Below, one piece after another: positions 599 through 35,439 of a DNA stretch of 64,000 nucleotides. This DNA comes from Candidatus Pacearchaeota archaeon (GTDB lineage: Archaea > Nanobdellota > Nanobdellia > Pacearchaeales > GW2011-AR1). The notes below the pieces were generated by a model. That model was not told the DNA's origin and searched no databases. It saw only the letters and a list, made by a program, of their open reading frames with translations. Position 1 is the first letter of the stretch. Each line of letters starts with the position of its first letter. The position numbers and the translations under genes are program-made. Location: positions 81,877 through 145,876 of the forward strand of contig JAVYLW010000002.1 in NCBI GenBank assembly GCA_038740375.1. The letters run 5' to 3'.

Positions 599-3500
599 TT
601 AAGATTTTTCTTTATTTTCAATAATTAGATTAGGAGAACCTTTTCTAACCCATGAGAGCCATTCTTTACTTAATTGATTTAAATCCATATCATAATATTT
701 TTTTAAAGCAGAATTATAATCGTTTGTGTTTAAAAATTCTTCCATAAAATCGAATAATCTTTTTTTTCCATTACAAGGTTCTTTTATTTCTCCTAATTGA
801 TACAAATAATCTACAATACTATATCCCTGTGCATATAAAGGAAGAATGTCTGAAGGATAATCATACATCTCAAAAAGACGGGAAACAGTAATTCCTCTAT
901 TAGTTCTTAAAAAAGTATGAAGCATTAAATATAACTCGCTTTTTCTAGAAGTAGATTCAACATGTGATGAAACTCCTTCATTAAACCATATAGGAATTTG
1001 TTTTCCAAAATAAATTGCTGTAATAATATGTTGAACTTCGTGAGGTATAGTATCTTTAATTAATCCTTCATAACCTCCTTCAAGCGACATCTTAAACATA
1101 ATAGGGCCTTCTTTTTTATCTATTAAAAAACTTGTAGAACCACCGCTGCTTACTTTATTACCTAAATTATTTCTTAAAATAACTTCTACAGGACATAGTT
1201 TTTCAAATTTTGGATACTCTCTTCCAATAAGCTCAACAGCAAAAAAACATTTCCAATATTCCAAATGCCATGCAAATAAGCAAGCATTATCACTATTATC
1301 TTTTACAATAAAATTAGGTGTCTTATAAACATTAGTTCTCTCACATTCATTAACTTTATCTATATATTTTTTACAAATTTGAGCTGCATTCTCAAAACAA
1401 TCAACATTTTTTTTAGAAGAAACTTCTAAACATTCTCCACAAATTCCTTCTCCTGTATTTTTATCTTCATAACAACAACCATCAAATAATAAATCCTTTG
1501 AATTTTTTAAGTGACAATCTGGAAGACTATCTTTTAAGTCCTTACATTCTTGAACATTTTTAAGTATATAATCTCTAATAAAAATTTCAAGTTCATTTAA
1601 ATTAGTAGGATTTGATATTTTATTTCCAAATTTATCAACAACTAATACTGTAGATGAATAACCTGAGATTTTATTAAGAAGCATATTATCATAATAATAA
1701 TTAATTAAAGGTTGATTTAAAGGATTTTCTTGATTTTTTATATTTATATTAAATAGTAGAACATTGTAAGTATTTGCAATTTTTACTAATCTACTGTATA
1801 CTGGATTTACATTTTGATAAAAATGTAAAATAGCTATACATGAACGATAATTCTTTTCAGGAAATTTTTGAAGGTTATATTTAATAGTTTCTTCCATAAA
1901 TTTTTTACCTTTTTCTAAATTATCTTCATTAGAAGAAGTTACTTCATTTACGTCAAGATAATTACTAAAACCTAAATTCTGTTTACACCATTTCTCTCCA
2001 AATGTCTCGATCGCAAAATCTTTTAATTTATCATCTATAATACTGTTCAATTTATTAAGAGCATCTTCTCTTGGATTTTTACTTCCTAATCTTCTTAATT
2101 GAGCTTCTTCTGCATCAATAGCTCTTTTCAAAGCAAAAACAAGATAGCTTCTGAATATTGAACCACTTTCGCTGTTCCAATAATTGCAATCATAGGTTTT
2201 AATTGCTTTTGCAAGAGCAAGGGAATAAACCACAAAATCACAAAGACGCAGAGATATAACCTCAGATTTTAGACTAATACTATTTTCTAAATTACTAACA
2301 TAAATAGCTCCGTTTGTATATGCATTTAACTCATCAAGAATAAAAAAAGGATCATCATACCAATTATTAAAGAATCCTACCTTTTCTAAACCTCCTCTAG
2401 TAAACGAATAAGTAATTAAATTTGGTTTAATATAAACGTCATAAGAACTTGAACGTGAAGCTGAAATCTTCATTTTATCTGGAATAAACTCGTCAACATT
2501 CTTTACATTTAAATTAGAAGGTTTATTAATCAAAACAAATTTTCCACCAAAAAGATAAAAAGCACTAACTTTTTTATTACCTCTACTGAATTGATTTCTC
2601 AGTTTAGAATTAATTGCATGAGTAGTTTCATGAACAGTACTCCTCTCATCTGAATATTTATAACCTAAATTTACTTCATAATTTTCTTTATCTTGAAACG
2701 TTGCTAAATAATTTTTATAATAATATCTAACATCTTCAATTTCAGTTAAAAGTTTATTAGGATCCTGCCCAAAAGATGATATTTGAAAAGATTTAACAGA
2801 ATCTCTCGATACTGGAATGCACTTTTTATTATCTGTTAGAGAGTTTTGTTGAGGAATAACTGAAATCACTGAATCTTTTTTATTTTCGCTGTCACTACTA
2901 ATATCTGAATTAGGAATTTTTGAATTCTGAATTTCAAGAAGGTAACTTTTTTTATAAACACAAATTCCTCCAGTATCAAAAGAGTGTGGTAATGTTAAAC
3001 ATTCGTTACATTCATCACATTTACCACAGTCTACTTCTTCAGCATCTTGAGAAGAACTAAATTTCCATTTTCCACATAAATTATAATCAGTTTTTTTAAT
3101 AACATCCAATCTATGAAGAGTTCTTAAAGTTTCTTTTTTAAAATTATCATCACAATATTTTTTGGAAGATTCTATTTTTTCAGAACAGATGGATGCAGGA
3201 TTAGTTCTTGTATCAACAGAACCTGGAGGCATAGGAGAACACTGCTCTAAAGAAATTTTTTTAGAGCATTTCTCTCCTTTATCGTTAAGACATCTTGCAT
3301 CTCCGTTATTATCTTTTTTACAACTACAAGGAGGATTATAATTATTAAAACAGTCATCAATCTCTTCTTTATATATAGATTTACATTCTTTAGAGATAGC
3401 ATCACAAATTTCAACTATCTTTAAAACTTTAGATCCATCTTCTGAACAATAATTTCCTTTATTATTTTGTTCTTCTAAATACTGATTAGTCTTACTAGTA

Positions 3501-5863
3501 TCAGGCTCAACAGGAACAAGTTTACCTAGAGGAATAGGAGATTGATTAGGACTAGGATTAAGTGGTTCAACAGGAACAAGTTTACCTAGAGGAATAGGAG
3601 ATTGATTAGGACTAGGATTAAGTGGTTCAACAGGAACAAGTTTACCTAGAGGAATAGGAGATTGATTAGGACTAGGATTAAGCGGTTCAACAGGTTTAGT
3701 AGTTTCTTTTTTTTCAACACATCTTGAATCTGAATTAGCTTGATTAATCGCAGATTTTAACATTTGTTCTAATATAGCATAAGTAGTTGCTCCAACAACT
3801 TTATTTATATACCACTTCCGGCTTCCTTGCGGAATATCAAGCGGTAATCTAGTCTTAACATCTTGAACAATTGAAATAAAAGTCGGAACTGCACTCACTC
3901 CCCATTGATTTACAAAATTCTTATCAACGTCAAAATTAAATTTTACAACTTTATACCCTTTTTGAGCAAGCTCATCAACAATAGGTGTCATTTTCTTACA
4001 AGGTCCGCACCAATCAGCAGAAAAATATAAGAGAACACCTCTACAAATCGACTGTTGATCATTAGATAAAGGATTAACTTGAGCAAGTTCTGTTGATTCT
4101 TCATCAAATTCACTTATACTTTTTCCATAAGGCATATTAATAAAATTATCTTCATCTCTAAATTCAAAAACACTAAAAAATCTTTTAATAAACTCTTTTA
4201 TTCTTTCAAAGAGACTATAATTTAATTTATCTGAATCACTTTTATCTTCAGAAACAGGAGTTTCAATAATTTCATAAAAAGGCATATAACAAATCGGACA
4301 TTCTCGAATATTATATAAAGTTAGAATCTCTTGAAATTTTATATAAAATTGTCTTGGAACACATTTCCCTGTTTTTCCATTACTTTCATTTATAATAAGA
4401 CCATTTTCACTTAAACAAATTTCCTCACCATCGCACTCACAAAAAATTTCTTCATCTTTTCCATCTTTATCCTTGCAATCAGTTTTATAATTACCGCATA
4501 ATGCCTTATCATTTTCTCTTATGTTATTACAATTCTTTTTATAACAAATAGTATTTTCAGAGTCTACAGTAGTAAACTTTCTAACACAAGAACTATAATC
4601 AAATTTACATTCTTTCGTACATTTTAATATTCCGTTAATCAGATTAAATGAAGAACAACTTTTACCATCTAAATCATTTCCATCACATTCCTCATTTTCT
4701 TCTTTAATATTATTTCCACATACAGAATAACAATCAATATCATAAATGTCAGTTAAACCATCACAATCATTATCTTTATTATCATTACATGTTATCTCTC
4801 TAATCTTTTCATAGTCATTTCCATAATTACATTCACTCCATATTCCATTTAAACATTTCTGTAAAGCTCCTTTGCAAACACCTTTATCTAAAGGACAATT
4901 TATTTCTTCTTTTTCATTATAAGAACAAGGGCATCCTTCATCAATACTTCCATCACAATCATTATCAAACTCATCACATATTTCATCTAAACTAGGATTA
5001 ATATTCTCATCATAATCATTGCAATCAAAATTGTTATAAGAATATCCAAAAGGAAAAAATATTCCTGCACATATATTTGTTTCTTCTCCTGCTCCATAAC
5101 CATCGTTATCTAAATCTTCATACAGATTATACCATAAAGAAAATCTATTTTTATCATTATCATTACAATCTTTATTATTTAAAACATAACCTCTAGGTCT
5201 TTTACAGGCTTTGATATAATCTTCAGGATTTCCAAATCCATCACCATCATTATCTTTAAAATAAATAATTCCTTCAATACATTTCCCAAAACAACATAGT
5301 CCATCATAACAATCTGATTCATCAGGAACATTTGAATATATACATCCACTATTAGGATCACATGAATCATAAGTACAATCATTATAATCGTTACAATCAA
5401 TTAAAGTTCCAGAACATATTCCATTATTACACTTATCATCTTTGGTACAGAGATTATTATCGTCGCAGGTATTTGAATCTTCATCTATTAAACATATTCC
5501 ATTTCCATAGCCTGTTCCATAACCACTAGAATCAGAACATTTTAAACATTGTTTACAGTTATCTTTTCCGTTAACAACATAACAAGGTTCTCCAAATTCT
5601 TTATTTTCTTTAAAGTTAATGTAAATTTTTTCTTTTAATCCAAAAAATTCATAGAAAGCTCTAATTGGAGTAAGAAATAAATTATAAATTTCTCCATTAA
5701 CTTCTTTTTTTTCATCAAAAATTCCATCATCTTTTAAATAAAAAAATAAAATAAAAGATAAAAAAAGATAAGTGATAAAAAATAAAATTAAAACAAAAAA
5801 TATATAAAAATATAACTTTTTATTATTCATATATCTTAAGATTGTTTTATTCCTCTTTTTCAT
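599..5863 (-). CDS. Giant (1754 aa) membrane-anchored multidomain surface protein: Cys/Asp-rich repeats + thioredoxin domain + Pro-rich tandem linker + two HExxH (zincin-like) modules
   Basis: Uninterrupted 5265-nt ORF with an N-terminal TM helix (YFYIFFVLILFFITYLFLSFILFFYL). Residues ~90-520 contain MopE-type repeats (CNDYDENINPSLDEICDEFDNDCDGSIDEGC; CNDNKDNDCDGLTD) and a myxococcal-type Cys repeat (VCGNNIKEENEECDGNDLDGKSC). Thioredoxin motif LLYFSADWCGPCKKM...VPTF, with WCGPC at nt 3998-4012. Three copies of VEPLNPSPNQSPIPLGKLVP. VHETTHAI (HExxH, nt 2618-2632). C-terminal PHEVQHIITAIYFGKQIPIWFNEGVSSHVES (nt 1028-1042) matches the peptidase-MA-like pattern HExxH...WxxEG. Confidence 0.8.
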   Translation of the reverse strand: MKKRNKTILRYMNNKKLYFYIFFVLILFFITYLFLSFILFFYLKDDGIFDEKKEVNGEIYNLFLTPIRAFYEFFGLKEKIYINFKENKEFGEPCYVVNGKDNCKQCLKCSDSSGYGTGYGNGICLIDEDSNTCDDNNLCTKDDKCNNGICSGTLIDCNDYNDCTYDSCDPNSGCIYSNVPDESDCYDGLCCFGKCIEGIIYFKDNDGDGFGNPEDYIKACKRPRGYVLNNKDCNDNDKNRFSLWYNLYEDLDNDGYGAGEETNICAGIFFPFGYSYNNFDCNDYDENINPSLDEICDEFDNDCDGSIDEGCPCSYNEKEEINCPLDKGVCKGALQKCLNGIWSECNYGNDYEKIREITCNDNKDNDCDGLTDIYDIDCYSVCGNNIKEENEECDGNDLDGKSCSSFNLINGILKCTKECKFDYSSCVRKFTTVDSENTICYKKNCNNIRENDKALCGNYKTDCKDKDGKDEEIFCECDGEEICLSENGLIINESNGKTGKCVPRQFYIKFQEILTLYNIRECPICYMPFYEIIETPVSEDKSDSDKLNYSLFERIKEFIKRFFSVFEFRDEDNFINMPYGKSISEFDEESTELAQVNPLSNDQQSICRGVLLYFSADWCGPCKKMTPIVDELAQKGYKVVKFNFDVDKNFVNQWGVSAVPTFISIVQDVKTRLPLDIPQGSRKWYINKVVGATTYAILEQMLKSAINQANSDSRCVEKKETTKPVEPLNPSPNQSPIPLGKLVPVEPLNPSPNQSPIPLGKLVPVEPLNPSPNQSPIPLGKLVPVEPDTSKTNQYLEEQNNKGNYCSEDGSKVLKIVEICDAISKECKSIYKEEIDDCFNNYNPPCSCKKDNNGDARCLNDKGEKCSKKISLEQCSPMPPGSVDTRTNPASICSEKIESSKKYCDDNFKKETLRTLHRLDVIKKTDYNLCGKWKFSSSQDAEEVDCGKCDECNECLTLPHSFDTGGICVYKKSYLLEIQNSKIPNSDISSDSENKKDSVISVIPQQNSLTDNKKCIPVSRDSVKSFQISSFGQDPNKLLTEIEDVRYYYKNYLATFQDKENYEVNLGYKYSDERSTVHETTHAINSKLRNQFSRGNKKVSAFYLFGGKFVLINKPSNLNVKNVDEFIPDKMKISASRSSSYDVYIKPNLITYSFTRGGLEKVGFFNNWYDDPFFILDELNAYTNGAIYVSNLENSISLKSEVISLRLCDFVVYSLALAKAIKTYDCNYWNSESGSIFRSYLVFALKRAIDAEEAQLRRLGSKNPREDALNKLNSIIDDKLKDFAIETFGEKWCKQNLGFSNYLDVNEVTSSNEDNLEKGKKFMEETIKYNLQKFPEKNYRSCIAILHFYQNVNPVYSRLVKIANTYNVLLFNINIKNQENPLNQPLINYYYDNMLLNKISGYSSTVLVVDKFGNKISNPTNLNELEIFIRDYILKNVQECKDLKDSLPDCHLKNSKDLLFDGCCYEDKNTGEGICGECLEVSSKKNVDCFENAAQICKKYIDKVNECERTNVYKTPNFIVKDNSDNACLFAWHLEYWKCFFAVELIGREYPKFEKLCPVEVILRNNLGNKVSSGGSTSFLIDKKEGPIMFKMSLEGGYEGLIKDTIPHEVQHIITAIYFGKQIPIWFNEGVSSHVESTSRKSELYLMLHTFLRTNRGITVSRLFEMYDYPSDILPLYAQGYSIVDYLYQLGEIKEPCNGKKRLFDFMEEFLNTNDYNSALKKYYDMDLNQLSKEWLSWVRKGSPNLIIENKEKS
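3505..3694 (-). repeat. Near-perfect 60-bp tandem repeat (about 3.2 copies) inside the giant ORF, encoding a 20-aa Pro-rich unit
   Basis: The unit caacaggaacaagtttacctagaggaataggagattgattaggactaggattaag[t/c]ggtt is visible directly in three consecutive sequence lines (3541, 3601, 3661). Only about 2 substitutions occur, at the array edges. Confidence 0.95.
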
Positions 5864-21871: not shown

Positions 21872-22747
21872 TTATACAATATTTTTTAATCCTATTTTTT
21901 TAGCATATAAAATAACTTCATTAAATTCTTTATAACTAATATTTCTATTTATTTCAGGAAATTTATAAGCATTAAAACACGGCCTATATTGATTCATTAT
22001 ATTAACTCTAATATTTTCACCTAGATTATCAAAAATCCACTTTAAAATAGGTTTTGCACAACATTCTATATGATTAGGTAAAATTAAAACTCTTATTAAT
22101 AATTCTCCATTTTTACTTGCAATTAATAAATTTCTCTTAGCAACTTCTGGATAATTTCTAATTTCACTTAGTTTAAAAGCACAATCTTCATTAAAATATC
22201 TAAAATCAAGAAGATATACATCAACAATATCTTTTATCAATTTAGCAGTTATTTCTGAATAATAAGAGGAACTATTCCATACAATTGGAATAGGAATATT
22301 TATTCTATTTAATAATTTTAAAATATTATAAACATAGCAATCAGGAGTAACAAAATTAATATTTTTGCATTTTTTCATTTGATTTATCCATTCAATAACT
22401 TTCCTATAACTCCAATCATTTCCTTTTTCAGGCTCAATAGAATAAGGAGCATTTTGACAATAACAGCATCTTAGAGGACATCCCGCTAAAAATAAAGTAG
22501 CGCTTGGAACAAGTTCTTTTTCTTCTCCAGTATGTTCATAAGCTCCAAAAATTTTCCATTTATCTAAAACTTTACAAAAACCGCTTTCTTTAAATCTATT
22601 AACACCACATTTTCTTTCACAAAATTCACAATTTTCCATAATTTTTTTAGCAACTTTGATATTTTTAAAAAGAATATTTTTTTCTTTTGCTAAAATAAAA
22701 TTAGGTTTTTCCTTATATTTTAATATAGAAAAATATCTGTTTAACAT
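21872..22747 (-). CDS. Radical SAM protein, PflX-like (COG1313-type)
   Basis: N-terminal Cys cluster CEFCERKCGVNR...GFC and the radical-SAM motif CPLRCCYCQN. Confidence 0.7.
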   Translation of the reverse strand: MLNRYFSILKYKEKPNFILAKEKNILFKNIKVAKKIMENCEFCERKCGVNRFKESGFCKVLDKWKIFGAYEHTGEEKELVPSATLFLAGCPLRCCYCQNAPYSIEPEKGNDWSYRKVIEWINQMKKCKNINFVTPDCYVYNILKLLNRINIPIPIVWNSSSYYSEITAKLIKDIVDVYLLDFRYFNEDCAFKLSEIRNYPEVAKRNLLIASKNGELLIRVLILPNHIECCAKPILKWIFDNLGENIRVNIMNQYRPCFNAYKFPEINRNISYKEFNEVILYAKKIGLKNIV

Positions 22748-24912: not shown

Positions 24913-25890
24913 ATGAAGATTATGCAAAAAATTCTTCCAAAATCCAAATTAAAAGAATTTATAGAATCTTTAATGAATAGCTATGAAATTATAGCTCCTG
25001 TAAACAAAGATATAACAAAATTTGATATTATTAAAAATCCAAATGAAATATATTTAAAACAAATAACAAAAGTTCCATTAAAAAAATTTTTTATCCCTGA
25101 AAATGAGATTATTTTAGAATATGAAAATGAAATAATAAAAGAAAAAAAAGATAAAACAAAAGAAAGAGTTATTTTTGGTTTAAGAAAATGTGACATTAAT
25201 GCTTTAGAAATTTTAGATAAAGTAATGACTGATAAGTTTTACTTAAATAAAAGAAAAAAATCTATATTAATAGGTTATTTTTGTGAAAATCCTGACAAAT
25301 ATTGCTTCTGCAACTCAATGCAATTAAGTGATAAGGGCTTTGATTTATTTTTTTATCCAAAAGATAACTTTTATTTTATATCAATAGGCACTGAAAAAGG
25401 AAAAGAATTAGTTAAAAATTTGAAAACAGCAAAAAAGGAAATTAAATTAGAATATTATAATAGAAAATACTTAAAAGAAACAGACTTAAATAAACATTAT
25501 AAAGATAAAATATGGGAAGAAAACGCTAATCAATGTCTTTCATGTTCAGCATGTACGATTTACTGTCCTACATGTAATTGTTTTGACATAAATGACATTC
25601 TTAGTTTAAATTTAAAAGATGGAAAAAGAATAAGGCAGGAAACATCTTGTCATTTAAAATCATTTACAGAAGTTGCAGGAGAAAAATATTTCAGAGAAAG
25701 TAGACTAGCAAGATTTAAGCATTTTGTATATCATAAGATAGTTTATTATAAAAAAAAGAAAGGTAGATACATGTGCGTAGGTTGTGGTAGATGTTTAAGA
25801 GTCTGTCCAACAAAAATAGATTGGGTTAAAACAATAAATTTATTAGAATCAATAAAACATCCAATAGAAGCAAAAGAAAAAATCATATAA
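24913..25890 (+). CDS. hydB: Sulfhydrogenase beta subunit-like (HydB/AsrA-like 4Fe-4S protein)
   Basis: CLSCSACTIYCPTCNC and CVGCGRCLRVCP clusters. First gene in a B-G-(X)-D-A order. Confidence 0.7.
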   Translation: MKIMQKILPKSKLKEFIESLMNSYEIIAPVNKDITKFDIIKNPNEIYLKQITKVPLKKFFIPENEIILEYENEIIKEKKDKTKERVIFGLRKCDINALEILDKVMTDKFYLNKRKKSILIGYFCENPDKYCFCNSMQLSDKGFDLFFYPKDNFYFISIGTEKGKELVKNLKTAKKEIKLEYYNRKYLKETDLNKHYKDKIWEENANQCLSCSACTIYCPTCNCFDINDILSLNLKDGKRIRQETSCHLKSFTEVAGEKYFRESRLARFKHFVYHKIVYYKKKKGRYMCVGCGRCLRVCPTKIDWVKTINLLESIKHPIEAKEKII

Positions 25891-25924
25891 ATAAAATTAA
25901 AATCTTAAAAATTTGTAAAATAAA

Positions 25925-26752
25925 ATGAATCAATATATTCCAAAACCATATATCATAGAAGAAATCGTTGATTTTACAGAAGATGTAAAGTTATTCAAAA
26001 TTAAATCAAACCTAAATCCAAAACCAGGACAATTTATTGAAGTATCTATCCCAGGTTATGGAGAATGTCCCTTAGCATCTTGCTCTAATGACGAAAACTA
26101 TATTCATATGTTAACAAGAAATGTAGGAAACTTAACAACAATGATGTTTAAATTAAAAAAAGGTGATAAAATATTCATAAGAGGGCCATATGGAAAAGGT
26201 TTTCCTATTAAAAATTTAAAAAATAAAAATATCCTTTTAATTGCAGGAGGAACAGGAATAGCTCCAGTAACATCCTTGTTACATTATATAGAGAAACATA
26301 GAAATGATTTCAAAGAAGTCTACGCTTATTTTGGTTTTAGAAATGAAAGATATATTTTATTAAAAGACAAAATAAAAGACTGGCAAAAAAAATTTAAGAT
26401 TGTGATATGTTTAGATAAAAAAGAAAATAACGAGTGTGAATTAAAATGTGAAATTGGATTTATACACGATGTTATGGATAAAATTAAACCCCTTATTGAT
26501 AATACAATCGCAGTTTTATGCGGTCCTGAAATAATGATGGATTGTGTAACTGAAAAACTTAAAAAACAAGGAATGAAAGAAAATAGAATATTTTGGAGTT
26601 TAGAAAGAAGAATGGAATGTGGGTTTGGAAACTGTAATAGATGTCTTATACAGGATTTATATGTGTGCAAAGATGGTCCGGTATTTAGATATGATATTAT
26701 CAAAACTAGAATAGATAATGAAGAATATAGCAATAAAATTAAAACAAATTAA
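25925..26752 (+). CDS. hydG: Sulfhydrogenase gamma subunit-like (FAD/NAD(P)-binding, C-terminal 2Fe-2S; HydG/AsrB-like)
   Basis: FNR-like fold (PGQFIEVSIPG...LIAGGTGIAP) and the C-terminal CGFGNCNRCL...C cluster. Confidence 0.75.
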   Translation: MNQYIPKPYIIEEIVDFTEDVKLFKIKSNLNPKPGQFIEVSIPGYGECPLASCSNDENYIHMLTRNVGNLTTMMFKLKKGDKIFIRGPYGKGFPIKNLKNKNILLIAGGTGIAPVTSLLHYIEKHRNDFKEVYAYFGFRNERYILLKDKIKDWQKKFKIVICLDKKENNECELKCEIGFIHDVMDKIKPLIDNTIAVLCGPEIMMDCVTEKLKKQGMKENRIFWSLERRMECGFGNCNRCLIQDLYVCKDGPVFRYDIIKTRIDNEEYSNKIKTN

Positions 26753-26753
26753 A

Positions 26754-27494
26754 ATGAAAATTTCAAATAAAGAAATAAATAAAGATATAAGAAAATTTAT
26801 AAAAATAGCTGAGATAAGAAAACAAGATATTATTTTAAATATACCCTTCGGAGATATAGCTGTAGCAAAAAGATTATCAAAAAAAAAGAAAATCAGTCTT
26901 CACATATTAGAAGAAGAAAAATTTCAAGTAAAAAATGCAAAAAAATTCATTAAAAAAGCAGAATTTTACATATCTTCCTCAGTATTAAAAACTCCATTTA
27001 AGAATGATTTTTTTGATAAAATATTTATAAGAAATGGTATTTACCAAATATTAAAAAATAAACAATTAATTTTATTCAAAGAAATTTACAGAATTCTAAA
27101 AACAAAAGGAAAATTCATTAACTGGACTATAGCTTTAAATAACAAAAATAAAAAATTTTTCAACAAATTATCGAGCAAAAAAAATGAAATATCAGGATTT
27201 TCGAAAAATATTTTTCAAAAAAAATATTTTGCAAGTAAAGAAGAAATCATATCATGGTTAAAAAAAGCAGGTTTTAGAAAAATAAAAATTTATGATTTAA
27301 AAATTTTTTATTTATTATCAACAGACATTTGGTTTAAAATTGATTTTAAAAAAGATTTAATTAAATCAAAAGAGTGGAACAATTATATTAAATCTTTAAT
27401 ATTCAAATATGAAATATCTGATATTCAAATAAAATATATAAAAAATAATTTTCAATTAAAAATACCTGCATTAATATCTATTGCTGAAAAATAA
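26754..27494 (+). CDS. Class-I methyltransferase-fold-like protein with degenerate SAM motif I, embedded in the hydrogenase operon
   Basis: The track start at 26718 overlaps hydG. The ATG at 26754 sits 1 nt after the hydG stop. DIILNIPFGDIAV occupies the usual LDxGxGxG position. TPFKNDFFDKIFIRNG...LFKEIYRILKTKGKFI resembles the Methyltransf_11 motifs (lPf.d.sFD.v...; Ei.RvLKpgG). Confidence 0.45.
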   Translation: MKISNKEINKDIRKFIKIAEIRKQDIILNIPFGDIAVAKRLSKKKKISLHILEEEKFQVKNAKKFIKKAEFYISSSVLKTPFKNDFFDKIFIRNGIYQILKNKQLILFKEIYRILKTKGKFINWTIALNNKNKKFFNKLSSKKNEISGFSKNIFQKKYFASKEEIISWLKKAGFRKIKIYDLKIFYLLSTDIWFKIDFKKDLIKSKEWNNYIKSLIFKYEISDIQIKYIKNNFQLKIPALISIAEK

Positions 27495-27495
27495 A

Positions 27496-28263
27496 ATGGA
27501 AATTAATCAAAAAAAACCAACTGTAGGATTTTATGGAATATCTGGATGTGCAGGATGCCTTTTAACAGTTTTATTTGAAAATTCTTTTAAAGAATTAACA
27601 GAGCTTGTAAATATAAAAGCATTTCCGCTAATAAAAGAAGATAGCTACAAAGGTTATTTTGATATAGTTTTTATTGAAGGAACAGTATGTTTTGACGAAG
27701 ATATTTTAATAATAAACAAGTTAAGAAAAAGAGCTAAAGTTATTGTGGCTTTGGGATCATGCAGCCACGTAGGAGGAGTTCCCTCAATAAAAAATTTTAA
27801 AGATAAAGAAAAAATAATGAAATTTGTTTATCCTAGAATAAATCATTTAAAAGAAGAAAATCCTACACCTATTGAAAATCACATAAAAGTAGATTATTAT
27901 ATTCCTCAATGCCCTCCTAACAAATCAGAAATAATAGAGTTTATTAAGATTTTTTTAACAGAAAGAAAATGGAAAAATTATAATGAGCCTGTTTGTTTTG
28001 AATGCAGAAAAAAAGCAAATCCCTGCGTATTAGAAAAAGGGGAAATTTGTTTAGGTCCCATAACAAACGGAGGTTGTGGAGCACTATGCCCTTCAAACAA
28101 AACAGAGTGTTATGGATGCAGAGGTCCTACTGATGATGCAAATATAAGGTCATTTAAAGAAATGTTAAAAAATATGGGCTATAAAGAAGAAGATATATTT
28201 GATAAAATGGAAACTTTTGCAGGATTACAATTCAAAAATAAAGAAGAAAAAGATGAAATATAA
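27496..28263 (+). CDS. hydD: [NiFe] hydrogenase small (delta) subunit, group 3-like
   Basis: VGFYGISGCAGC at the N-terminus, plus GSCSHVGG and distal Cys clusters (CFECRK...C; GGCGALCPS...CYGCRGP). The ATG at 27496 lies 1 nt after the preceding stop. Confidence 0.8.
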   Translation: MEINQKKPTVGFYGISGCAGCLLTVLFENSFKELTELVNIKAFPLIKEDSYKGYFDIVFIEGTVCFDEDILIINKLRKRAKVIVALGSCSHVGGVPSIKNFKDKEKIMKFVYPRINHLKEENPTPIENHIKVDYYIPQCPPNKSEIIEFIKIFLTERKWKNYNEPVCFECRKKANPCVLEKGEICLGPITNGGCGALCPSNKTECYGCRGPTDDANIRSFKEMLKNMGYKEEDIFDKMETFAGLQFKNKEEKDEI

Positions 28264-28281
28264 ATTATCTTTTTTTATAAC

Positions 28282-29568
28282 ATGAAAGAAGAAATAAACC
28301 TAAACCACATATGTAAAATAGAAGGTCATGCACATTTATCACTAAAAATAGAGAATAACAAAGTTACTAAATGTGAACTTAAGGCAAGCGAAGGAGCAAG
28401 ATTTTTTGAAGGTCTTGTTTTAAATAAAAATATAAGAGATATACAAGAGATAGTTTCAAGAATATGTGGAATCTGTTCAGGAGCTCATAGTGTTTGTTCA
28501 ATACAAGGTTTAGAAAATGCTCTTAAAATTAGACCTTCAGAACAGCAAAAAAAAATACGAGAAATGTTAATGATTGGTGAAAGAATAAGAAGTCACACAA
28601 CTCATTTATATTTTCTTGCATTACCTGATTATTTCAATAAAGAATCAATTTTACAAATGATGCCCGAACATAAAGAAAAAATCAATGATGCACTTTCTTT
28701 AATTTCTCTTGGAAACAAGATAGTTGAAATCGTTGGCGGAAGAGAAATGCACCCTTTTTTAAAAATTAAAAAAGAGTTTCCAGAAAATGACTTAAAGGAA
28801 ATAAAAAATAAACTTGAAAAAACTAAACCCATTATTTATAAAACTATAAATCTTTTTTCTGGATTAGAATATCCTAAATTAGAAAGAGAAGCTAATTACT
28901 TAAGCTTAAATGAAGAAAATAATTATGCATCTATATCAGGCAATATAAAATCAAGTTTAAACGAATTTGAAACAAAAGATTATAAAAATTTTTTAAAAGA
29001 ATCAATAAAAGAATATTCAACATCTAAATTTGTTTTAATGAAAGATAAACCTTATATGTTAGGAAGCATTTCAAGAGTAAATAATAACTATAATAAGCTC
29101 GATTTTGAAACCAAAGAAATTTTAACTTCATTATTAAAAAATCTTAATATTAAACTGCCATTTAATAATCCTTATCATAACCTTATTTGTCAATCTATAG
29201 AATTATTAGAGTCTGTTAATAAAGCAATATCTTTAATAGAAAATATTGTAAAGATTAAATATGAAAATCAAGATTTTAAAATAAAACAAGGTCATGGAAT
29301 ATCTTGCGTTGAGGCTCCAAGAGGTATTTTATTTCATGAATACAAAATAGATAGATTTGGCAAAATAATTTATTGCAACATAATAACTCCAACAGCTCAA
29401 AATTTAAACATGATGGAAAACGATATAACTTTATTAGTCAATAAATTACTATCTGAAAATAAAACAAAAGATGAAATAGTTAAAGAAGTTGAAAAACTTA
29501 TTAGAGCTTATGATCCTTGTTTTTCATGCTCAACTCATTTTCTAAAGATAAATTGGGAAAAAACCTGA
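28282..29568 (+). CDS. hydA: [NiFe] hydrogenase large (alpha) subunit, group 3-like
   Basis: N-terminal RICGICSGAHS (RxCGxCxxxH) and C-terminal DPCFSCSTH (DPCxxCxxH). A 9-aa tail (FLKINWEKT) follows, consistent with endopeptidase processing. Confidence 0.9.
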   Translation: MKEEINLNHICKIEGHAHLSLKIENNKVTKCELKASEGARFFEGLVLNKNIRDIQEIVSRICGICSGAHSVCSIQGLENALKIRPSEQQKKIREMLMIGERIRSHTTHLYFLALPDYFNKESILQMMPEHKEKINDALSLISLGNKIVEIVGGREMHPFLKIKKEFPENDLKEIKNKLEKTKPIIYKTINLFSGLEYPKLEREANYLSLNEENNYASISGNIKSSLNEFETKDYKNFLKESIKEYSTSKFVLMKDKPYMLGSISRVNNNYNKLDFETKEILTSLLKNLNIKLPFNNPYHNLICQSIELLESVNKAISLIENIVKIKYENQDFKIKQGHGISCVEAPRGILFHEYKIDRFGKIIYCNIITPTAQNLNMMENDITLLVNKLLSENKTKDEIVKEVEKLIRAYDPCFSCSTHFLKINWEKT

Positions 29569-29840: not shown

Positions 29841-30236
29841 ATGAGAGGAATATATATTCTAATAATCAGAGTTAAAAAACCTTTAAAGATTAAAATAGGA
29901 AAGTTAGGAATTATTAATTTCACAAAAGGAAATTATGCATATATAGGAAGTGCACAGAACAATTTGGAAAAAAGAATAATGAGACATAAATCGAAATCTA
30001 AAAAGAAAAAGCTTCATTGGCACATTGATTATTTATTAAATAATAAAAATTCAAAAATAATAAAAATTTTTTATAAAAAAAAATCAAAAAAATATGAATG
30101 TATTATAGCAAAAAAATTATCAAAAAAAAGAAATATAATAAATAAATTCGGATGTTCAGATTGCACTTGCAAGAGTCATTTAATTAAATTGGAAAATCAA
30201 GATTTAAAGTTTTCTTCGGTTTTTCTGGAATTTTAA
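29841..30236 (+). CDS. GIY-YIG superfamily protein of the DUF123 (Uri-like endonuclease) type
   Basis: GIYILIIRV...GKLG...[11 protein letters not shown]...RHKSK...HWHIDYLL...ECIIAKKL...[12 protein letters not shown] matches my recollection of the DUF123 consensus. Confidence 0.7.
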
Positions 30237-33876: not shown

Positions 33877-34233
33877 TCAAAAGAATCTTTTTACATATTC
33901 TAAAGAATCATTTACATCAAAATTCATAGGAATTCCTATTATCTTAATTTTTTTTTCATTCTCAAAAAGTTTTATAATAAAACTTGCATCAAAATCATGA
34001 CAAGTTAGTATATTACTATTGTTTAATTCAGAAATTTTGATTATTCTAGGAAAATCAAGATTTTTAACTACATCAATAATAATAAAGTCTTCTTCAGAAT
34101 TTAACTCTTCAATTAACTCAAAAGAATCCCTAATGTTTATTATATCATAACCTTGTTTTATTAACTTCTCAGCTAATTTTTTACCTAAACTATCCTCTTT
34201 AATAAATTCATTACCTAAAGAAAGTATTTTCAT
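33877..34233 (-). CDS. Hydrogenase maturation endopeptidase (HycI/HybD-like), unusually short
   Basis: 118 aa. MKILSLGNEFIKEDSLG (GN...DD.G-like), IIIDVV and LTCHDFD supply candidate Asp/Asp/His Ni ligands. Adjacent to hypC. Confidence 0.6.
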   Translation of the reverse strand: MKILSLGNEFIKEDSLGKKLAEKLIKQGYDIINIRDSFELIEELNSEEDFIIIDVVKNLDFPRIIKISELNNSNILTCHDFDASFIIKLFENEKKIKIIGIPMNFDVNDSLEYVKRFF

Positions 34234-34234
34234 T

Positions 34235-34726
34235 TCATTTTTTTATTTTTTTTACAATAGCCTTATTATGAGTTATTACTCTATCTCCAACTTTAACATC
34301 TCTAAAAAATTTTCCAACAGCTATATCTTCATGAGATTTATATTTTATTCTATAGACTGGATAAGGTATTTCTTTAAAATTTTCAATCTTAACAACATCT
34401 CCTATTAAAACCTTACAAGATTCGCATAAAATATCTGGCATATTTGCATATTCTCCTTCTTTTTTATCAATAATAGAATTATGTTGTTCTAAAAAATATC
34501 TCTCAACTGCTTCAGGTGTTTTTTCAGTTATTTTTTCATCAGCAAATGGAAGTATCTTTGAAATAAATTCTGATGAAGGTGTTTTACCTTTATTCCAGTA
34601 GTCCATTGCTTTATCGTAATCTTCCTTTCTTATTTTTCCCCTATAAAGTCTGTTTTCTAAACAGGTAATACCATAAGTAAAAAGCATTCCCTCATAGGTA
34701 TCTTCCATCTTATTTTCTAACATCAT
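34235..34726 (-). CDS. Unknown N-terminal domain fused to a HypC-like C-terminal domain
   Basis: The C-terminal 60 aa (CKVLIGDVVKIEN...YRIKY...VKVGDRVITHNKAIVKKI) parallel the neighbouring HypC (CLNIPGKFVKVKK...IIDY...LKIGDYVIVSNKIIVKII). Overlaps hypC by 17 nt. Confidence 0.4.
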   Translation of the reverse strand: MMLENKMEDTYEGMLFTYGITCLENRLYRGKIRKEDYDKAMDYWNKGKTPSSEFISKILPFADEKITEKTPEAVERYFLEQHNSIIDKKEGEYANMPDILCESCKVLIGDVVKIENFKEIPYPVYRIKYKSHEDIAVGKFFRDVKVGDRVITHNKAIVKKIKK

Positions 34727-34922
34727 TTATTAAATTCAAATATTTTATTGCTTCTTTTTTAGGAATAATCTTCACTATTATTTTATTTGAAACAATAACA
34801 TAATCACCTATCTTCAAATTTTCAACAACACTTAGTATAGCTTCTCTTTTTTTTCCATTATAATCAATTATAAATTTATTTTTTTTTACTTTTACAAATT
34901 TTCCAGGAATATTTAAACACAT
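34710..34922 (-). CDS. hypC: Hydrogenase assembly chaperone HypC
   Basis: 70 aa. N-terminal MCLNIPGK (MCL.IPg signature) and GDYVIV. Confidence 0.8.
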   Translation of the reverse strand: MCLNIPGKFVKVKKNKFIIDYNGKKREAILSVVENLKIGDYVIVSNKIIVKIIPKKEAIKYLNLINDVRK

Positions 34923-35115
34923 TAAATCATATTAATAAAAAGAATTTATATAATTTATGAATTTTAAATAAAGTTATTTTTATTAATAAAAAATAAAACA
35001 GAATAAACAAATAAATTAAATTGACAGAGTATAATGATAATTTCAAAAGAATAGCAAAAGATATAAACACAAGAGATACGATCTTAAAGAATAATTTCAA
35101 TTAATTCTATTTATA

Positions 35116-35439
35116 TTATTTATCATAAGTAACTCTTAATATTTTTATTTCATTACCCTCTAAAACTAAAGGCTCTCCTCCGCATAAAGGACAATCAAAA
35201 ATAACAAAATCATGTAATCTTTGAATAATTCTTGGCTCTCCAATATAACCGCAATTGCATTTTACCTTTGATTTTTTCAAAAAAACAGAAACATTCCAAG
35301 AGGTTTCATCAAAAAGATGTTCTTTTAAATGATGTGAATCAATTCCTACAAGTTCGCCTAATTCAATATCTATAGAAATAACTTTATCTTTATTAGGAAC
35401 TTGATTAATTATATTTTGAATAAAATGATGTTCATGCAT
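35116..35439 (-). CDS. hypA: Hydrogenase nickel-insertion protein HypA
   Basis: 107 aa. N-terminal MHEHH, with zinc-site CNCGY...CPLCGG. Confidence 0.8.
   Translation of the reverse strand: MHEHHFIQNIINQVPNKDKVISIDIELGELVGIDSHHLKEHLFDETSWNVSVFLKKSKVKCNCGYIGEPRIIQRLHDFVIFDCPLCGGEPLVLEGNEIKILRVTYDK

Follow-up and report, generated by a model that had tools for sequence, protein, structure and literature searches.

Gene content of the locus

The window analysed here is a 64,000-nucleotide (nt) stretch of a Candidatus Pacearchaeota archaeon genome (assembly GCA_038740375.1, contig JAVYLW010000002.1, positions 81,877 to 145,876), with about 24% guanine plus cytosine (GC) throughout. From 24913 to 29568 it carries five plus-strand open reading frames (ORFs) arranged head to tail: a HydB-like gene, a HydG-like gene, an additional gene here called X, and the genes for the small (HydD) and large (HydA) subunits of a [NiFe] hydrogenase (Table 1). 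The subject of this analysis is X, which encodes a protein with a methyltransferase fold, and the junction between hydG and hydD (the G/D junction) in which it lies.

Matches in Pfam, NCBIfam and the PDB identify the locus as a group 3b [NiFe] hydrogenase with the order B-G-(X)-D-A on one strand, in agreement with the hydBGDA order and identity proposed in a first-pass annotation of this DNA. In group 3b enzymes, HydA and HydD interconvert H2 and protons, and electrons travel via Fe-S clusters in HydD and HydB to the flavin and [2Fe-2S] cluster of HydG, from which they reach NAD(P). The HydB-like subunit scores 181 bits with NCBIfam sulfhyd_ShyB, 170 with HydB and 154 with AsrA, and the HydG-like subunit 247 bits with AsrB and 192 bits with the hydrogenase gamma family. 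HydD reaches 179 bits with sulfhyd_HydD versus 100 with VhuG and 67 with FrhG, and HydA 278 bits with sulfhyd_HydA and 269 with ShyA versus 133 with VhuA and 122 with FrhA. The Ni-Fe ligand motifs of HydA are RICGIC near its N-terminus (RxCGxC; residues 60-65, nt 28459-28476) and DPCFSCSTH near its C-terminus (DPCxxCxxH; residues 411-419, nt 29512-29538), and its best PDB matches are alpha subunits of sulfhydrogenase I (9nez, 9e15 and 5yxy, E about 1e-74, versus 3.5e-46 for MvhA).

Every NCBIfam hydrogenase score lies far under its equivalog cut-off (for example, 278 versus 880 bits), so the operon represents a distant DPANN lineage of group 3b. The nearest HydD relatives, 62-76% identical, are proteins from metagenome-assembled genomes of Pacearchaeota, Nanoarchaeota and Woesearchaeota. 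Group 3b enzymes have already been reported in Woesearchaeota and other DPANN genomes as NADPH-coupled and possibly reversible, H2-evolving enzymes (PMC8421398). The hydrogenase of the window appears ordinary and, because a maturation cluster is also present, apparently functional.

Reading frame and junctions of X

Direct reading places the heptamer TAAaATG at both ends of X, exactly where the first-pass annotation had reported it. The pattern TAAnATG is frequent in this AT-rich window, with 79 occurrences, so the X junctions are notable for their tightness and not for their sequence. The same annotation took X to be almost certainly co-transcribed and probably translationally coupled with its neighbors. 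Tight same-strand embedding makes co-transcription with hydBGDA likely. Given the 1-nt spacers, and no Shine-Dalgarno-like sequence at X or hydD (among the operon genes, only hydB has one upstream, GAGGT), translation by termination-reinitiation is plausible.

The ORF is real and not a product of chance. None of 2000 mononucleotide shuffles leaves the frame open, the shuffles hold about 27 stops, the other five frames of the region hold 11-27, and 120 of the 246 codons are one substitution from a stop. By these counts, the frame clearly appears to be under selection that keeps it open. X also has the lowest GC (18.1%) and the highest content of Phe, Tyr, Asn, Lys and Ile (F/Y/N/K/I, 58%) in the operon, with a third-position GC matching its neighbors, a pattern that suits a gene of long residence whose amino-acid sequence is only loosely constrained. 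For comparisons of nonsynonymous and synonymous rates (dN/dS), synonymous sites are saturated, given about 50% amino-acid identity to homologues and a GC content of about 20% in these genomes. A longer version of X, starting at 26718 (258 amino acids, aa), was rejected because it overlaps the conserved HydG C-terminus and gains no family motif.

Table 1. Coordinates of the operon, the diagnostic positions of X and the maturation genes in the window.
Feature	Coordinates	Strand	Basis or remark
hydB-like Fe-S subunit, 325 aa	24913-25890	+	Pfam Fer4_22, E=1.9e-29
hydG-like FAD/NAD(P)-binding [2Fe-2S] subunit, 275 aa	25925-26752	+	Pfam NAD_binding_1 and DHODB_Fe-S_bind
G/X junction, TAAaATG, 1-nt spacer	26750-26756	+	stop 26750-26752, ATG 26754
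X, class I methyltransferase-fold protein, 246 aa	26754-27494	+	Methyltransf_11, family profile, AlphaFold2 model
Degenerate motif I of X, ILNIPFGDIAV, residues 27-37	26832-26864	+	ILDAMAGNGAI in relatives
X position 29, Asn	26838-26840		Asp/Glu in 109 of 110 other members
X position 35 (last motif I Gly), Ile	26856-26858		Gly/Ala in 108 of 110 other members
X position 98, Gln (CAA)	27045-27047		Glu/Asp in 110 of 110 other members
X position 144, Asn	27183-27185		Asp in 104 of 110 other members
X position 157, Lys	27222-27224		Arg in 109 of 110 other members
X/D junction, TAAaATG, 1-nt spacer	27492-27498	+	stop 27492-27494, ATG 27496
hydD, small subunit, 255 aa	27496-28263	+	Oxidored_q6, E=2.3e-20
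hydA, large subunit, 428 aa	28282-29568	+	Pfam NiFeSe_Hases, both Ni-Fe ligand motifs
Hydrogenase maturation cluster	33877-35439	-	about 4.3 kb downstream of the operon
Maturation protease-like gene	33877-34233	-	TIGR00072, E=3.9e-6, under its cut-off
Conserved 163-aa protein without family match	34235-34726	-	between the protease-like gene and hypC
HypC-like gene	34710-34922	-	MCLNIP start
HypA	35116-35439	-	Pfam, 29.1 bits

Fold and family of X

X matches the Pfam family Methyltransf_11 with 27.1 bits against a gathering threshold of 21.2 (E=6.5e-6), and the match covers only residues 56-122 (profile positions 28-94), downstream of motif I. An AlphaFold2 model built on a 33-sequence family alignment has a mean local confidence (pLDDT) of 93.8 and a global score (pTM) of 0.91, values that partly reflect the supplied alignment. 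In Foldseek, the best match of this model is 1vl5 (BH2331; TM-scores 0.77/0.81), and YcgJ, JHAMT, GtmA, RebM and phosphoethanolamine methyltransferases (PMTs) are also recovered; among 1314 PDB matches at E<=1e-3, the best 50 are all methyltransferases. The predicted structure confirms a Rossmann-like, seven-stranded class I methyltransferase fold. Profile search and modeling thus uphold the earlier assignment of X to the class I S-adenosylmethionine (SAM) methyltransferases of Methyltransf_11 type.

Relatives of X were collected by a word-indexed search, followed by a full HMMER scan with a profile of the clusters found. The word-indexed search gives three close clusters (P0002-P0004), 48-51% identical to X, and the HMMER scan 244 cluster representatives at E<=1e-10, mostly 250-300 aa long and matched over their full length. 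This family, defined by the profiles A2 and A4, consists of BH2331-like archaeal methyltransferases. X scores 241 bits with A4, compared with 294-305 bits for its nearest relatives, and its match is full-length, including the C-terminal sub-domain (KKDELAGF...NRYF...GF...K). The family hallmarks are an N-terminal R-x-V-x-Y-E-x-x-H, a motif I of the form ILDxxxGYGAV, an Asp that ends strand 2, FDKVVIKMGLHE(I/V)PK, KKDELAGF and NRYF. Source databases name the members just 'class I SAM-dependent methyltransferase' or 'UbiE', which gives no functional lead.

No family member was found fused to a redox or hydrogenase domain; the detected fusion partners are second methyltransferase domains only. 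P0034 (500 aa), P0076, P0094 and other members of about 450-510 aa have a second generic methyltransferase domain fused to or beside them, as does a member at locus L088 (5139-6936), and they resemble two-domain enzymes that perform successive methylations. A HemN-like reading of the N-terminal 240 or so residues of P0034, made by eye, was dropped, as no Pfam match was found. A PADLOC scan returned nothing for X; P0002 has only a generic methyltransferase-core match to 'mad2', judged uninformative, and a nucleotidyltransferase at locus L004 matches the candidate family PDC-S09.

Residue losses in X

Across 111 full-length members, X departs from the family at 13 of 32 columns conserved at 70% or more, the most of any member (median, 4). 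The motif I signature D/E-x-G-x-G-x-G reads N-I-P-F-G-D-I in X, and in the model this segment sits in the loop after the strand of residues 26-30. The first-pass annotation had called this Gly-rich SAM loop degenerate, and a column census of the 110 other members bears it out. X is the sole member of the 111 without a carboxylate at both positions 29 and 98, and its N-terminal His segment is deleted. Conservation between the HydG proteins of the window and of locus L093 extends to the very last C-terminal residue, so there is no room upstream of X for the His segment. In alignments, position 98 corresponds to the His in the PMT segment 'RDAILH' and to the H-H of BH2331. In PfPMT, this His is the catalytic His132 of the Tyr19-His132 dyad; PDB titles of PfPMT list Y19F, H132A and D128A mutants. 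In the family tree, the X branch is the longest in its subfamily. X probably no longer binds SAM productively or catalyzes methyl transfer.

The same changes could also mean that X is decaying, as a pseudogene so recent that its frame has not yet been hit and whose product is free of selection. The hallmark losses mostly fit AT-biased single-nucleotide drift (GAT to AAT, AGA to AAA), and this would go with the extreme AT and F/Y/N/K/I composition and the long branch. Such decay is improbable: X differs from every relative by about 45-50% and has zero stops or frameshifts where about 27 stops would be expected, most structural core positions are conserved, and a streamlined genome has kept the 1-nt spacers instead of deleting the gene.

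Distribution of X and cargo at the G/D junction

The survey covered about 90 related hydrogenase loci. A HydD-profile scan of 185,579 GTDB species genomes contributed 80 of them, and none of the 80 has an X homologue; a metagenome scan with a single HydD protein gave two loci, its patterns being too specific. X or a homologue adjoins hydD at three loci: the window, a 3.7-kb ENA contig (ERZ1426824) and locus L092. The ENA contig has the order G-X-D-A with the same 1-nt spacers as the window, its X being P0002. The L092 homologue, at the edge of its contig, is partial (184 aa, with 54% identity to X over residues 72-246), and a minus-strand gene for a secreted protein separates it from hydD-hydA. 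Both homologues retain residues lost in X, such as YE(V/I)PK, KKDE/KEKDK and NRYF, and P0002 additionally retains LDAMAGNG. The HydD tree places the window and the P0002 contig in separate subclades. Elsewhere, family members lie beside genes for coiled-coil proteins (L001-L003), a methyltransferase and Fic (L088/L089), or a MacB/FtsX permease (L090).

The closest relatives of the window operon lack X. At L093, whose HydD is closest (76% identical), X is absent and hydD starts 18 nt after hydG; L007 (72-79% identity) has no G/D insert. L006 and the P0165 contig share the window flanks, with genes for a mannose-6-phosphate isomerase-like protein, ROK and NUDIX upstream and for DUF123 and phosphoglycerate mutase downstream, and they too are without X, their G/D slots being occupied by other genes. 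A tblastn search for relics across all fetched loci found only the partial copy at L092, with no scars in L006, L007 or L093. Most simply, X would be an old insertion that was later lost or replaced several times; spread by recombination between operons is a possible alternative.

The junction itself is variable. The G/D gap exceeds 250 nt at 7 of the 21 loci whose HydD is at least 60% identical to that of the window, against 2 of 58 more distant ones (Fisher p=0.001), and the B/G and D/A junctions are interrupted as well, three times each. The cargo includes MNT-HepT toxin-antitoxin pairs (L004, L011, L091), GrpB, nucleotidyltransferases (L009, L021), GNAT acetyltransferases with a SET-domain protein (L019), HIT, flavin reductase and DUF72 (L011), and secreted and membrane proteins. 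At L006, L092, L049 and the P0160 and P0165 contigs, cargo genes lie on the minus strand, so hydDA must there be expressible independently of hydBG. The slot showed neither an integrase or tRNA gene nor a repeat boundary. In this Pacearchaeota-like clade, the G/D junction behaves as a variable cargo slot in which X is one passenger among many.

These distributions bear on the proposal, raised in the first-pass annotation, that X is a new accessory or assembly subunit, a regulatory partner or part of a pathway coupling reductant to methylation. In its sharpest form, X would be a neofunctionalised, non-catalytic and lineage-specific accessory, assembly or regulatory partner that, for example, docks with HydG and HydD or senses SAM, S-adenosylhomocysteine or another ligand. 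Tight embedding, with translation probably coupled to both neighbors, strong maintenance of the ORF despite the loss of catalytic residues, and the linkage to hydD at three loci in two subclades would all suit such a role. It is nevertheless unlikely, since the closest relative and the syntenic ones have seemingly complete hydrogenases but no X, and the two other hydrogenase-linked copies keep their catalytic residues and look like ordinary enzymes. Unrelated genes fill the slot in other relatives, and the family lacks fusions to redox or hydrogenase domains. With family members beside hydD at just two other loci of about 90, the subunit proposal is not supported, and neither is that of a regulatory partner or reductant-methylation pathway. 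The predicted fold stands, whereas conservation at the G/D junction is mostly absent.

Several observations concern the cargo and the hydrogenase genes of related loci. The MNT (Polbeta/NTP_transf_2) and HepT genes lie on the plus strand between hydG and hydD at L004 (720-1620), L011 (1261-2200) and L091 (4098-5004), and at L091 the HepT gene overlaps the start of hydD. A minus-strand cargo gene recurs in the G/D slot in the sister clade of the window (L006, 5281-5916; L092, 557-1114; 31% identity, E about 1e-23), and by eye its product has a hydrophobic, signal-peptide-like N-terminus. The minus-strand ORFs in the G/D slots of the P0160 and P0165 contigs encode 229 and 162 aa. In distant DPANN-like loci, the HydD ORF spans about 350-520 aa instead of the usual 255 (L052, 5926-7332; L056, 5788-7347; L062, 5983-7032; likewise long in L066, L068 and L070), which suggests that the small subunit is extended or fused at its C-terminus. 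The Woesearchaeota locus L077 (5998-10093) has two tandem hydD-hydA pairs after one hydBG, and the Dehalococcoidia loci L074, L080-L083 and L085 have a second small/large pair (about 24% identity) directly upstream of hydB, at about 1575-4000.

Interpretation and significance

The explanation preferred here, with a probability of about 60%, is that the operon encodes a standard group 3b hydrogenase and that X is a co-transcribed passenger, probably catalytically dead, whose frame is kept for residual or polarity reasons. Its ancestor would have been an intact, small-molecule-type class I SAM methyltransferase of the uncharacterised BH2331/YcgJ-like family. Insertion at the G/D junction would date to an ancestor, most relatives having later lost the gene or exchanged it for others. 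In the lineage of the window, X would then have shed its N-terminal His motif, the motif I carboxylate and last glycine, and the carboxylate at position 98. It would be transcribed with hydBGDA and translated, probably, by termination-reinitiation. The frame might persist through some non-catalytic use of the folded protein, or because early termination in X would break the translational link to hydD and hydA.

A number of points weigh against this explanation. The loss of SAM binding is read from sequence alone, and many active methyltransferases have an atypical motif I. An intact ORF without catalytic residues is also what a neofunctionalised pseudoenzyme would present. The three loci linking X to hydD span two HydD subclades, and two of them share identical 1-nt spacers, so the linkage would have persisted for a long time. 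Finally, methyltransferases account for 4 of 34 cargo ORFs at hyd junctions versus 4 of 554 flanking ORFs (p=6e-4), a comparison of accessory genes with mostly core genes that uses the X-family hidden Markov model as a crude methyltransferase detector and moves two L008 genes by hand from flank to cargo. Because GNATs and nucleotidyltransferases are similarly frequent and accessory genes are set against core genes, the excess is read as the usual make-up of the accessory pool.

The first-pass annotation knew of no hydrogenase operon with such an insert, a statement that the survey corrects, as several kinds of methyltransferase occupy hyd junctions in this clade. The B/G junction of L008 holds a 252-aa class I methyltransferase and a 399-aa protein with a class I methyltransferase domain as its C-terminal half (219-977 and 2662-3861), and a 266-aa homologue of the former lies directly before hydA at L009 (8345-9145). 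L019 (4800-5513, 7196-7729) has a 237-aa class I methyltransferase at G/D, with the SET-domain gene also at a hyd junction, and a 267-aa one is tightly embedded at the G/D junction of L030 (4120-4923). Membership of these proteins in the X family was considered and rejected; their matches to the X profile are confined to the Rossmann core, and they are therefore taken as independent insertions. A literature search found nothing specific on methyltransferases in sulfhydrogenase operons or on cargo slots in DPANN operons.

The recurrence of such genes gives some room to the idea that X remains a working methyltransferase despite its unusual cofactor loop and was placed here through a metabolic link (sulfide or thiols, selenide, arsenite) or for co-expression with the supply of reductant. 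At least five other class I methyltransferases and a SET gene at hyd junctions, together with their enrichment, speak for it, as do the retention in X of most fold residues and of Glu53, which ends the strand of residues 48-53 at the ribose-contact position (Asp in 96 and Glu in 14 of 110 relatives), and a fold like that of small-molecule and thiol methyltransferases such as GtmA. We consider it rather unlikely: X lacks two carboxylates that are near-universal in 110 relatives, has Ile for a motif I Gly and has no His segment. The inserted methyltransferases belong to different families and junctions, beside equally frequent GNATs, nucleotidyltransferases and toxin-antitoxin pairs, and most hydrogenases of the clade have no methyltransferase.

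Recurrent methyltransferase cargo is the main reason why a functional link stays alive at all, at low odds. In a related version, the recurrence (X family at three loci, at least five unrelated class I enzymes, SET) would reflect a coupling with the hydrogenase, with X itself as a non-catalytic partner or regulator, and this is a long shot. One possible coupling is the methylation or detoxification of sulfide, thiols or metalloids handled by the sulfhydrogenase. A link between hydrogenase and methylation would, if real, give a very widespread class of hydrogenases a new partner.

Taken as a passenger, X warns against assuming that a gene encodes a subunit just because it is tightly embedded, and probably translationally coupled, among the genes of an enzyme. 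Accessory genes in streamlined DPANN genomes can land at the cistron junctions of a conserved operon and borrow its expression. About one-third of the G/D junctions in this clade are interrupted, some by minus-strand genes, so hydBG and hydDA can be expressed separately. X would also be a natural example of a methyltransferase that loses its catalytic carboxylates with its frame open, possibly through polarity constraints on the downstream hydrogenase genes.

Maturation cluster and neighboring genes

Locus L091 has the four maturation genes of the window in identical order, with 39-57% identity. The counterpart of the 34235-34726 protein at L091 (7768-8304, minus strand) is 39% identical, and the pair spans 163-178 aa. 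By eye, their C-terminal part resembles a HypC-type OB segment (VGDRVITHNKAIV), and the protein could be an unrecognised maturation factor.

Directly 3' of hydA, a DUF123/GIY-YIG-like gene lies in the window (29841-30236, plus strand), at L006 (8582-8986) and at L092 (3447-3839). On the other strand, some 2 kb before the operon, a gene at 21872-22747 encodes a radical SAM protein weakly similar to activases of glycyl-radical enzymes or anaerobic ribonucleotide reductases, with no evident link to X. Near the window start, a very large ORF (599-5863, minus strand) encodes 1754 aa.

Comparison with known systems

What is new here is an operon arrangement and a cargo slot not described before, both built from a known hydrogenase class and a known enzyme superfamily. 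With sulfhydrogenases I and II of Pyrococcus furiosus and Thermococcus kodakarensis (HydBGDA/ShyBCDA), the window shares the four subunits, the B-G-D-A order and the AsrA/AsrB-like diaphorase pair. Unlike those systems, the operon of the window, known here from its DNA, has an extra gene between hydG and hydD.

For X, the closest comparisons are BH2331 (1vl5) and YcgJ (1xxl). BH2331 is the best sequence match of the X family (profile E=1.1e-18), over a span that includes the N-terminal His and the H-E/H-H segment, and both structures match X over its full length, including the C-terminal sub-domain. X itself is only about 16% identical to them and lacks the motif I carboxylate, the glycine and the N-terminal His. 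BH2331 and YcgJ offer no function that could be transferred to X. PMTs (PfPMT; 3uj6-3ujd, 4iv8, 5wp4), JHAMT, GtmA and RebM share the fold, the N-terminal lid helix and the C-terminal cap, and two-domain PMTs recall the members of the X family that are fused or adjacent to a second methyltransferase domain. Identity to PMTs is 15-18%, and at position 98 the family has Glu where PMTs have His and X has Gln.

METTL14 and DNMT3L are catalytically dead methyltransferase-fold proteins with a demonstrated partner and role. Like them, X keeps its fold and ORF with degenerate cofactor and catalytic residues, but its distribution argues against an obligatory partner. The nearest parallel to the slot is found in the variable islands of streamlined genomes such as SAR11 and Prochlorococcus (for example, PMC2217521), which likewise hold different accessory genes at a fixed position in close genomes. 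Unlike those islands, the slot of the window lies inside a four-gene enzyme operon, and its cargo is sometimes trimmed to 1-nt spacers.

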